64,000 nucleotides of DNA from contig JAIYAQ010000021.1 in assembly GCA_027488975.1 (NCBI GenBank), forward strand, positions 12,455 to 76,454. The letters are read 5' to 3'. Each line of letters opens with the position of its first letter. Within the stretch, counting starts at the first letter, position 1. Below the pieces are notes generated by a model. It made no database searches and had not been told where the DNA came from. It was given only the letters and a program-made list of their open reading frames with translations. Of this stretch, positions 35,046-37,624 are shown piece by piece. The DNA is from Cyanobium sp. E1_MAG_00006 (GTDB taxonomy: Bacteria > Cyanobacteriota > Cyanobacteriia > PCC-6307 > Cyanobiaceae). Both the position numbers and the translations under genes were made by a program.

Positions 35046-36812
35046 TCAGGCCCCATCGAAACGGCCGCCAGCGCCACTGCTGGCCAGTGCCACGCCCTCC
35101 TCCTGCATCGCCACCAAGATCCGCCGCAGCAGCTCCCGCTGGGCGGCCCATTGCCCGCCGGCCTTGGTGGTGAGCACGATGCTGAGGTCGATGGCCGTCG
35201 GCGTGACCTGTTTCACTCCGCGCAACCAGGGCGGAGCGAGCAGCTGATCGCTCCAGTGCGGATCGGCGGCAAACACCTCGCATTCACGGGCCAGCAGGGC
35301 CAGGGCCCGCTCAATCTGGGCATGCTGCGGCTCCAGGGGGATCAGCACCTCAATGCCGGAGCGAAGCTTGGTGTGGTTGATCAGCTGCTGCGGCGCGCTG
35401 TTGGCGAACTGCACCGCGCGCTGATCACTGGTGCGCAGCTCCGTCATCAGGATGCCGACATCCACCACCTCGCCAGTCACGCCGTTCACCTCCACCACGT
35501 CGCCAACGGCGTAGTGATCATCAAGCAGCGCAACCAGGCCGGCCACCCCATCACGCAGCAGCCCCTGGAAAGCGATCGCCAGACCACCCAGCAGGGCGCC
35601 TCCAGCCAGCCAGGCGCCGACGGTGAGTTGACGGATCCCCGGAACATCGGCCAACACAAGCACCACCAGCGCCCCGATGCATCCCAGATCGATCAGGCGA
35701 TGGCTGACCTGGCTGAGGTTGAGGTAGCGCTGCTTCCGGCGCGCCCGCTCCGCCAGAGGCACCGCCAGGCTGCTGACCCACTGGCGCAGCACGAACCGCG
35801 CCAGCCAGCGCAGGGCGGCGGCGCACAAGCCGAGCAGAGCGATCTTGAACAGGATCGACAGGGGCTGCATCAGCACCGCAATCGCCACCGGGATCCGGCC
35901 CGGGATGGCGCTGACCAACAGGCCCGCCAGCATCACCAGCTGCGCAAGAACCGCCACAAACAACAGGCGCAGCAGCCACTGAATCCGCCACGGGCGGCTG
36001 AACACCGCTGATCCATCGGGTGCAACCTGATCGCTCTGGCGCTGCAGCTGCCGTCGCAGCCTCGCCCAAAAAGCGACGGTGATGGCGCAGGTGCCCGCCA
36101 GCAGCAGGGCCGAGATCAGCACGATCTTCAGCCGCAGGGCGAGCTGGCTCTCCTGCATGGTGAAGCGGGCATGGCGCAGACGCCGCTGCAGCACCTGCTG
36201 CCAGCGTCGGGCGAGCTGGTCGCGGCTCAGGCCGTGCAATTGCGCATCGGCCTCCGTCACCGTGAGCAGCGGCAGGGGGGCGGAGCGTCCCTTGATCCGG
36301 GCCTGCAGCTGCAGCTGGCCATCGGCTCCGCTGCTCACGGCGACGGCCAGATCCTGGGGTGGGCCGAGGACCGACCAGGGATCACCGCTGCAGAGGCGCT
36401 GGGTGGACGGACCACCCAGAACAAGGCCCTCCAGGATGGCCTCGGCGATCCCCTCACCACCGCTGCAGAGGGTATGGGGCTCGTAGAGCAGGCTGAGATT
36501 GCCTTCAATCACCGCGGCGCGCTGACGCGCATCCGGCGCATCCTCTCCGCGGCTCACCACCGGCGCCGCCACGCTGATGGCCGGAATGCCAAGGATGCGA
36601 ACCGGCGCCACGTCGTAACTCCCAACCGCCTCGATCGGCTCCGCCACGGGGCTGCTGGGTTCAGCTGCGAGCCCTGCGGCGCTCAACAGGGTCAGGCTCA
36701 GCACCAGGAGCCCGAGGCTCCGCTTCAGCCAGCGCAGGAGCCCTGAGCGCGTGCGCCCAGAGTGGTGAGCGGTCCGCCAAGTCACAACGTCTGCAGCGGG
36801 AAACATCCGCAT
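35046..36812 (-). CDS. MscS-family mechanosensitive channel with large periplasmic N-domain
   Basis: GLAIAFQGLLRDGVAG..L....YAVGD.V.....G.V........ELR; start uncertain. Confidence 0.85.
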   Translation of the reverse strand: MRMFPAADVVTWRTAHHSGRTRSGLLRWLKRSLGLLVLSLTLLSAAGLAAEPSSPVAEPIEAVGSYDVAPVRILGIPAISVAAPVVSRGEDAPDARQRAAVIEGNLSLLYEPHTLCSGGEGIAEAILEGLVLGGPSTQRLCSGDPWSVLGPPQDLAVAVSSGADGQLQLQARIKGRSAPLPLLTVTEADAQLHGLSRDQLARRWQQVLQRRLRHARFTMQESQLALRLKIVLISALLLAGTCAITVAFWARLRRQLQRQSDQVAPDGSAVFSRPWRIQWLLRLLFVAVLAQLVMLAGLLVSAIPGRIPVAIAVLMQPLSILFKIALLGLCAAALRWLARFVLRQWVSSLAVPLAERARRKQRYLNLSQVSHRLIDLGCIGALVVLVLADVPGIRQLTVGAWLAGGALLGGLAIAFQGLLRDGVAGLVALLDDHYAVGDVVEVNGVTGEVVDVGILMTELRTSDQRAVQFANSAPQQLINHTKLRSGIEVLIPLEPQHAQIERALALLARECEVFAADPHWSDQLLAPPWLRGVKQVTPTAIDLSIVLTTKAGGQWAAQRELLRRILVAMQEEGVALASSGAGGRFDGA

Positions 36813-36840
36813 GCTGGCGGCAGCTTCAGCGGCAGGCAGC

Positions 36841-36867
36841 AAAAACCCCCGGGGAGAGCCCGAGGGT
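36841..36867 (-). terminator. intrinsic terminator on the minus strand, just upstream of mscS
   Basis: 9-bp stem whose only mismatch becomes a G-U pair on the minus strand, 5-nt loop, then a U-run. Confidence 0.7.
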
Positions 36868-36880
36868 CATGCTGTTTCAA

Positions 36881-36990
36881 CTGAGCGTGAAGCCTGAAGC
36901 TGGTCTTTGAAGCGTGAAGCTTGAAGCTGGACTGTGAAGCTGAACGTTGAACCTTGATTCTGTGGATTGCGTGGTTTGTTGATCGTTGTT
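36881..36990 (-). ncRNA. candidate repeat-rich sRNA or attenuator leader
   Basis: six NTGAAGC heptamers plus degenerate copies (36887-36960), A/C-rich 5' part, no in-frame ATG, ends at a terminator. Confidence 0.4.
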
Positions 36991-37408
36991 ATGAACGTTG
37001 CCCGTTGGTCGGGCGTGTCGACCGGGGCGAAGCGGCTGGCGGTGGCGCCTGGGGCCAAGCGATCCTGGGGGCGGGCGGGGTCAGCTCCGGGGCGCCTCAG
37101 GCGGTGCGGATGGAGCCTCGACAGTTCAGACGTCCCAACACAGTGTCCGAACCGACGAGCCGCCCATGGTTGGGTGAAGACTGTTGGAGCAGGGCCCTTG
37201 AGTCAGCGTGCTTCTGGCCGGTGGCGGGGTGGCGTGTCGTCCATCGGGGACGCCTCCGTGTTCGTTGCACTCACCATCGCTCCGCGAGCGCACGCGCACA
37301 ATCGGCCATTACACGCATTGCAGCGCCGCGCCAGCGGCATGAGGATGGACTGTCTGGGCGCTCTTCACCCCGTTTCCAATAGGCTCAGGCCCGCAGCGCT
37401 TCGCTCCC

Positions 37409-37624
37409 TTGCCCCAGCCCGCGTTCCAGTACGAGCCGCTTGAGAAGTTCGGCGAAGGGCTCACCACGCGCCGCCCCTGGAACACGGAAGCCCTGGCAGG
37501 GGTGGAGCGCCTCAATGGCCGCGTGGCGATGCTCGGCTTCGCCGCAGCCCTGATCGGCGAATGGCTCACCGGCCATGGCCCTGCGGGCCAGCTGCTGGCG
37601 GTGCTGCGCTGGTATCTGAGCTGA
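37409..37624 (+). CDS. hli: high-light-inducible protein (HLIP)
   Basis: ERLNGRVAMLGF chlorophyll-binding motif. Confidence 0.9.
   Translation: MPQPAFQYEPLEKFGEGLTTRRPWNTEALAGVERLNGRVAMLGFAAALIGEWLTGHGPAGQLLAVLRWYLS

Follow-up and report, generated by a model that had tools for sequence, protein, structure and literature searches.

What are the tandem heptamers and the hairpin that lie directly upstream of an mscS gene in this cyanobacterial genome: an RNA of their own, a leader of the channel gene, or part of a larger unit? The question was raised by a preliminary description of positions 36841-36990 of the window, i.e., the whole 64,000-nt stretch of Cyanobium sp. E1_MAG_00006 DNA that was analyzed. 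There the interval was taken for a separate heptamer RNA; it is instead the tail of a predicted ~420-nt member of a conserved, multi-copy small RNA (sRNA) family. We consider it probable that the stretch represents the 3' tail and terminator of one paralog of this picocyanobacterial family, with Yfr103 as its most likely identity. For annotation, the repeat and the terminator in front of mscS, which look like orphans, would thereby be explained.

The heptamer array and the terminator

The minus strand reads GGTTCAA CGTTCA GCTTCAC AGTCCA GCTTCAA GCTTCAC GCTTCAA AGACCA GCTTCAG GCTTCAC GCTCAG from 36953 to 36881. The six exact GCTTCA units noted earlier were located on this strand at 36888-36893, 36895-36900, 36908-36913, 36915-36920, 36922-36927 and 36935-36940, with the degenerate units GGTTCA, CGTTCA, AGTCCA, AGACCA and GCTCAG interspersed among them and flanking them. 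The 27-bp higher-order duplication was recovered by TRF as a 27-nt period at 36884-36944 (2.3 copies, 88% matches), and CAGCUUCA, a longer form of the GCUUC unit, occurs in three units of the array. The A/C-rich 5' part corresponds to the 57 nt upstream of the array (36954-37010), which are 75% A+C. The statement that no ATG is present was wrong, as one lies at 36870-36868, immediately 5' of the hairpin.

Cyanobacterial STRR repeats, which the array had brought to mind, are likewise tandem heptamers in non-coding DNA. STRR families have many dispersed copies in heterocystous genera, and their sequences are other than GCTTCA. The window array is derived from an sRNA motif, and a whole-genome scan found it to be the one cluster with at least four GCTTCA units in the 2.70-Mb genome; membership in STRR therefore fails, since the array is unique in its genome. 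Outside the window, at ~82042-82072 of the same contig (G000:C17), three GCTTCA units recur with a 12-nt period (GCTTCACTGGCAGCTTCAGTAACAGCTTCAC), probably within coding sequence, and a similar cluster is found in G005:C145.

The array is followed by a hairpin of the form ACCCUCGGG-CUCUC-CCCGGGGGU with a U5 run (36867-36841), which is present in both the MFE and the centroid folds. Its strand-specific U.G pair forms on the minus strand only, as had been proposed. A simple promoter/terminator scan did not pick up the hairpin at 36867-36841. The distance from the end of the U-run to the first ATG of mscS (36812-36810), given before as ~30 nt, was measured as 29 nt.

A larger predicted sRNA gene in the window

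The interval 36841-36990 makes up the last third of a predicted RNA gene of ~420 nt, which runs on the minus strand from ~37262 to 36841 (Table 1). The repeat and the terminator first described there are real, and their coordinates cover just the 3' third of the transcription unit. The anatomy of the unit was drawn from alignments of 46-137 copies. From 5' to 3', it consists of the palindrome GCAATGCGTGTAAnGGCCGATTGC, a -10-like region, a 5' hairpin with GGAGG and ATG, the 5' strand of helix P1 (GAAGC-n2-3-GCUG), the invariant GGCCCCUGCUCCAACAGUCU, a variable stem-loop, a GCA(C/U)C/GGUGC hairpin, GGCCCCAGG, the 3' strand of P1 (CAGC-n-GCUUC), a tail and the terminator. The tail between the P1 strand and the terminator is poorly constrained across the family, measuring roughly 15-240 nt, and the palindrome GCAATGCGTGTAAnGGCCGATTGC, at 37321-37299 in the window, is conserved in the alignments upstream of family copies.

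From this arrangement we infer a transcription start site (TSS) at ~37262, 3' of the conserved palindromic operator. Transcription would end at the hairpin and U5, and P1, formed by 5' GAAGC..GCUG with 3' CAGC..GCUUC, would close a core of ~240 nt. Given a TSS placed ~70 nt upstream of the CUGCUCCAACA box, core and tail lengths put typical family members at ~290-330 nt to the terminator.

Table 1. Features of the predicted sRNA locus and its neighbors, in window coordinates.
Feature	Position	Strand	Remarks
Divergent high-light-inducible protein (HLIP) gene	37409..37624	+	Pfam PF00504; a neighbor, not a family-wide partner
Promoter imperfect palindrome GCAATGCGTGTAATGGCCGATTGTGCGCGT	37292..37321	-	Precedes nearly all family members; spans -59..-30 with a TSS at ~37262 (inferred)
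Predicted full transcript, Yfr103-family paralog	36841..37262	-	~420 nt; core in >130 loci; terminator closes the unit
SD-like GGAGG (37257-37253) and mini-ORF ATG..TGA (37244-37203)	37203..37257	-	Encodes MDDTPPRHRPEAR; stop inside the P1 5' strand
Closing helix P1, 5' strand GAAGC-ac-GCUG	37204..37214	-	
Closing helix P1, canonical 3' strand CAGC-c-GCUUC	37029..37038	-	Motif repeated by the heptamer array
A/C-rich linker	36954..37028	-	~85-89% identity; common to the closest relative, G005, only
Heptamer array	36881..36953	-	Six exact GCUUCA and degenerate units; two 27-nt super-units; 73 nt
Intrinsic terminator of the sRNA	36841..36867	-	8-9 bp G+C-rich stem, 5-nt loop, U5; homologous to paralog terminators
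CUGAAGCUG between terminator and mscS ATG	36821..36829	-	Perfect 9-nt complement of array CAGCUUCAG
MscS-family channel gene	35046..36812	-	588-aa ORF; Pfam PF00924 (MS_channel_2nd), E 9e-13; outside the RNA element

Distribution of the family

When related genomes were searched with 36780-37060, the tail was matched in one genome, that of G005, and many genomes matched two short blocks, namely the GGCCCCAGGCGCCA..GCCAGCnGCTTC region and the terminator. The matched loci show ~300 nt of conserved sequence further upstream. A core query (37020-37330) gave matches in 79 of the 121 genomes of the taxonomic family, low-GC Prochlorococcus-like ones included. The ~240-nt core, together with the promoter palindrome and the terminator, is found at more than 130 loci in Vulcanococcus, Cyanobium, marine Synechococcus and low-light Prochlorococcus. 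Within marine Synechococcus, all genomes of one genus (30/30) carry the family in 1-8 copies each. Named genomes among the matches listed by a pattern scan are Cyanobium, Vulcanococcus (to which the window belongs), Synechococcus RCC307 and MIT S9452, and Prochlorococcus MIT 0707, along with many single-cell genomes.

The family is absent from the small complete genomes of 1.7-1.8 Mb. The core was not found in 16 genomes of other families, where the best match was a fragment of at most 33 nt with an E value above 1e-4, and the phage and plasmid collections contained no family match. Rfam 15 returned no relevant match for the window or the paralog loci at either gathering or permissive thresholds (E up to 10), so a covariance model is needed for the family.

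The genome that contains the window carries two full copies, one on C17, in the window, and one on C13, as well as a divergent copy on C2. The second full copy (G000:C13:11128-11523, minus strand) faces a convergent gene. The divergent one (G000:C2, ~184650-185060, plus strand) belongs to a subfamily with a GGAGC/GCUCC closing helix and has an additional hairpin inside and a tail of 110 nt. Elsewhere, copies occur in clusters: four lie within 25 kb at G008:C1:276046-301116, a divergent pair is separated by 1.5 kb at G072:C1:120576-122251, and three are arranged in tandem with 450-bp spacing at G119:C1:2267994-2269128. Such clustering is compatible with a role of the copies as recombination substrates around variable islands.

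Core structure and helix P1

RNAalifold and pair counting were applied to an alignment of 79 sequences (A1), in which 94.8% of the helix cells are paired, compared with 33-43% when the partners were slid; at P1 the proportion reaches 97.5%. The alignment holds 37 double-change cells vs 11.3 +/- 2.3 in shuffles (0 of 500), and the P1 pair 62-331 is realized as AU in 49 sequences, GC in 27 and CG in 2. An alignment-free comparison gave the same picture: 77 of 83 copies contain the complement of their 5-mer within their own 3' region, vs 7% in cross-controls. P1, the closing helix of the ~240-nt core, is shown by the pair counts to covary. On the minus strand, G.U pairs are frequent (e.g., UG 24 at pair 217-257) and A.C combinations rare; as G.U lies far above A.C, the RNA strand is the minus strand of the window.

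In the ensemble fold of the window copy, canonical P1 has a predicted pairing probability of 0.99, while pairing of the array with the 5' strand reaches at most 0.007. A competition in cis of the array for the P1 5' strand was rejected on this partition-function result.

Probable identity with Yfr103

Yfr103 is a non-coding RNA family of marine picocyanobacteria, reportedly treated by Voigt et al. in 2014. According to the text on Yfr103 in Hou et al. 2016 (PMC5069720), Synechococcus CC9605 has seven paralogs of 290-328 nt, with loci including 520334-520624 and 523173-523498, which together form its most abundant transcript. According to the same text, homologs exist in further marine Synechococcus, RCC307 being named, as well as in low-light Prochlorococcus, and in both groups no transcript exceeds Yfr103 in abundance, whether in culture or in the sea. 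It further gives the RNA a strongly conserved structure and an imperfect repeat at -30 to -59 of the promoter, and terms its function 'enigmatic' (PMC5069720).

The window copy is a member of our family by both sequence and structure. The family, in turn, shares with the published description of Yfr103 a multi-copy organization, a structured core, predicted transcripts of ~300 nt, a palindrome ~30-59 nt upstream and absence from Rfam. With the TSS placed at 37262, the palindrome spans exactly -59..-30, as published for yfr103. The copy number compares well with the seven published paralogs (two full copies and one divergent copy in the own genome, up to 7-8 in relatives), and the conserved structure is matched by the pairing frequencies in A1. 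The range also agrees: RCC307 and Prochlorococcus MIT 0707 are among the matches listed, marine Synechococcus and low-light Prochlorococcus carry the family, small high-light-type genomes do not, and freshwater Cyanobium and Vulcanococcus are added. Against the published 290-328 nt, typical loci would come to ~290-330 nt and the window copy to ~420 nt, all of our ends being predicted ones. We therefore regard the identity of the family with Yfr103 as very likely, on the basis of a match to the published description (copy number, predicted size, range and palindrome) and not of a sequence alignment.

The window copy departs from published Yfr103 in its origin from a freshwater Vulcanococcus-type genome and in its predicted length, which is greater by ~100 nt because of the A/C-rich linker and the 73-nt heptamer array. 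From other family members it differs by substitutions at two otherwise invariant helix positions. The locus would extend the family to freshwater Vulcanococcus and Cyanobium.

Origin of the array and its possible role

G005, the closest relative, carries an orthologous RNA that is 85-89% identical and ends in the same terminator, but lacks the 60-nt array. At the insertion point its sequence reads ...CAAGGTTCA|CGCTTAGTTCAAACTGCATGACCC..., where the window has 60 extra bases (36947-36888). Since the insertion is absent from G005, the array arose after the split; it is also absent from the other 23 same-genus genomes sampled. Judged by these comparisons, the array is a recent, lineage-specific expansion of 60 bases in the tail of the predicted sRNA. 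It probably formed by slippage on the degenerate GGTTCAC GCTTAGT, two heptamers that are still visible in G005. This tandem expansion would have added six exact and several decayed GCUUCA units to the long tail of the window lineage. The repeated GCUUC corresponds to the 3' strand of P1, whose 5' partner is GAAGC.

We lean towards the view that the array is without function, a tolerated slippage product and thus a microsatellite in a spacer. A more tentative possibility is that selection maintains its GCUUCA units as exposed copies of the conserved CAGCUUCR element, which would act in trans by displaying this element to an RNA or protein that recognizes it. Such a multivalent tail might titrate or recruit a partner, which could be another Yfr103 paralog, through its GAAGC 5' strand, an mRNA that contains UGAAGC(UG), or an RNA-binding protein; this, too, we regard as possible and no better than that. 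A functional tail would account for the choice of the P1 3' strand as the repeated unit and for the integrity of the six cores, as all three differences between the 27-nt units fall outside GCUUCA ((9/27)^3 = 0.04). Against selection, neither the closest relative nor any other sampled genome of the genus has the array.

The tails of other family members bear on the same question. Extra GCUUC is enriched in them, with 17 occurrences in 9 of 72 tails vs 2.3 in shuffles (maximum 9), whereas tails of the GGAGC/GCUCC subfamily are devoid of extra GCUCC, of which 3.2 were expected. The 8-mer CAGCUUCA turns up independently in no fewer than four further tails (L066/G068, L133, L007 and L056), GUUUCA/AUUUCA repeats are found in the tail of L054, and a 14-nt repeat, GCCAGCAGCUUCA, is present in five or six copies in the groEL 3' UTR of another genus. 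However, local duplication of a canonical motif could yield such recurrence without selection, and heptamer microsatellites of the GGCTTCA type are widespread among unrelated bacteria. One array unit is 91% unpaired in the ensemble, but the majority are tied up in pairing with one another (unpaired probability 0.2-0.4), and the genome contains no outstanding complementary target, the best being a 16-nt match with an E value of 0.03. The intact cores, the GCUUC enrichment and the recurrence of CAGCUUCA argue against pure neutrality of the array.

The analogy with CsrB fails in its defining parts, as GGA loops are missing and the genome has no CsrA gene (PF02599 absent, control genomes positive). 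The window RNA does resemble the CsrB/RsmY/RsmZ sponges in being a terminator-ended non-coding RNA with a single short motif repeated many times. It differs from them in its motif, which is GCUUCA and not GGA in hairpin loops, in the lack of CsrA, and in that its repeats were inserted recently in one lineage and do not form the conserved part of the RNA.

Genome searches for GCTTCA arrays had been recommended; among the matches listed, one other array in an sRNA tail was recovered, in G068, and heptamers from metagenomes were without the sRNA core. G068 has two sRNA paralogs with tandem repeats in long tails, namely GAUUUCA/GUUUCA in L054 (G068:C154) and CACAGCUUCAA in L066/L297 (G068:C401). 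Outside the tails, a family-wide pattern scan returned several AGCTTCA repeats among the matches listed, at about twice the control rate. In G148, which represents another genus of the same family, five to six tandem copies of the 14-nt GCCAGCAGCTTCA, the exact consensus of the P1 3' strand, are located in the groEL 3' UTR before the terminator (L300/L317; G148:C25:3044-3106, minus strand). A metagenome scan for three consecutive heptamers yielded, among the matches listed, unrelated GGCTTCA microsatellites, none of them with the sRNA core. Intergenic GGCTTCA/CGCTTCA microsatellites of this kind occur in unrelated bacteria (L192, L196, L202, L208, L226, L245, L252 and L254), and some of the metagenome loci have inverted TGAAGCC arrays nearby.

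A candidate mini-ORF at the 5' end

Of 137 copies, 135 combine GGAGG with a start codon 4-9 nt further on and the peptide M(D/A)DTPP; a missing ATG is made good by TTG, GTG or an in-frame ATG one codon upstream. The mini-ORF is 7-14 codons long in most copies and ~25 codons in two, and its stop, which is UGA or, in Prochlorococcus, UAG, falls within or at the P1 5' strand. Substitutions in codons 3-6 were counted in 35 rows that had been found by BLAST, and hence were not fixed by the search pattern; first, second and third positions changed 2, 1 and 35 times, respectively. The third-position variation, the kept start codon and the stop inside P1 suggest that this nominally 'non-coding' RNA may be decoded or bound by ribosomes. 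Part of the mini-ORF region also forms a GGaGGCG/CGCCaCC helix, so a constraint at the RNA level contributes to the conservation. Neither the mini-ORF nor the repeat of the P1 strand appears in the text on Yfr103 in Hou et al. 2016 (PMC5069720).

A short conserved 5' ORF, a stop in a helix strand and a terminator downstream are also features of the trp/his-type leader-peptide attenuators. In contrast to these, the sRNA has ~170 nt of conserved structured RNA between the P1 strands and no conserved downstream gene, and in the window copy ~360 nt, 3' tail included, extend from the ORF stop to the terminator. Also unlike them, Yfr103 RNA is reported to accumulate as an end product.

The features to which the locus points are a covarying closing helix, the CAGCUUCR motif amplified independently in several tails, and a 5' mini-ORF with coding-like substitutions that ends inside the helix. 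As a speculation to which we assign a low probability, CAGCUUCR could be the recognition site of Yfr103, locked in P1 and freed by ribosomes translating the mini-ORF (MDDTPP...), whose stop is part of the other strand of P1. On this view, a paralog whose tail keeps 6-8 copies exposed at all times would be a multivalent variant, or a sponge, that does not depend on translation. If true, such a release of P1 would give a first access to the mechanism of the small RNA that is most abundant in marine picocyanobacteria.

Alternative explanations of the locus

The window copy could be a decaying sRNA pseudogene, because its changes hit two otherwise invariant helix positions (37094 U->C; 37066 U->A, the latter common to G005). 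The unusually long tail and the array would then be debris, with no transcript of consequence, in a neighboring region that is in flux, as the mscS deletion in G005 indicates. We judge such decay to be improbable. The two deviations, counted over 73 columns conserved at >=92%, are ordinary for the family (median 1, 90th percentile 3), and the promoter palindrome, SD, mini-ORF, P1 and terminator are intact in both the window and G005 despite ~11-15% divergence of the flanks.

Control of mscS by an attenuator had been suggested as a role for the stretch. In this scheme, the RNA would act in cis as a leader with conditional read-through, and CAGCUUCAG of the array would pair with CUGAAGCUG and control mscS translation. 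The short distance from the terminator end to the mscS ATG favors the scheme, as does the perfect 9-nt complement at 36829-36821, a 9-mer with a density of 1 per 38.8 kb per strand in the genome. This complementarity is at best a weak lead, noticed after the fact in a GCUGCC-rich stretch of low complexity; at the corresponding site G005 reads CUGAGGCUG, a wobble-compatible counterpart, although its mscS start is lost. No alternative antiterminator fold was seen in the MFE, centroid or ensemble folds. Moreover, at more than 130 loci the RNA and its terminator form a gene in their own right, followed by unrelated or convergent genes; what lies downstream varies from locus to locus, and linkage to mscS is not conserved.

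In G005, mscS is mostly deleted and the RNA, the terminator and the next ~36 nt are kept. This loss makes the RNA separable from mscS, and an attenuator of mscS is very unlikely because the closest relative keeps RNA and terminator with most of the channel gene gone. The position upstream of mscS is incidental, and the RNA is independent of mscS. At the G005 locus (L004, G005:C120, 1181-1375, minus strand), mscS is cut to a 64-aa C-terminal remnant 3' of the orthologous sRNA, with a different transporter gene next to it, and the sRNA adjoins a rearrangement-prone region.

Translation of the 63-aa ORF at 36867-37058 is hardly credible: the frame is open in the window, a 43-aa version is open in G005 and the 60-nt insertion keeps the frame, but an open frame is expected by chance since stop codons are rare in T-poor sequence, the start is a TTG within an invariant RNA motif without an SD, and paralogs have just the first 10-14 codons in common, which are RNA-constrained. 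Nor is the ORF conserved at the protein level, given a +1/-1 indel pair and scattered replacements relative to the G005 version and no match in Pfam, and the original view of a non-coding, minus-strand element with its own intrinsic terminator holds. Readings as a TnpB/IscB omega-RNA, a riboswitch, a tmRNA or a group II intron were dropped, because there is no nuclease gene, no Rfam match and no conserved downstream gene.

An association with HLIP genes was considered as a family trait and rejected, the HLIP motif being present near 5 of the 137 family loci. In the window and in Vulcanococcus limneticus (L124), the HLIP gene is divergent and lies ~150 bp from the putative start of the sRNA.
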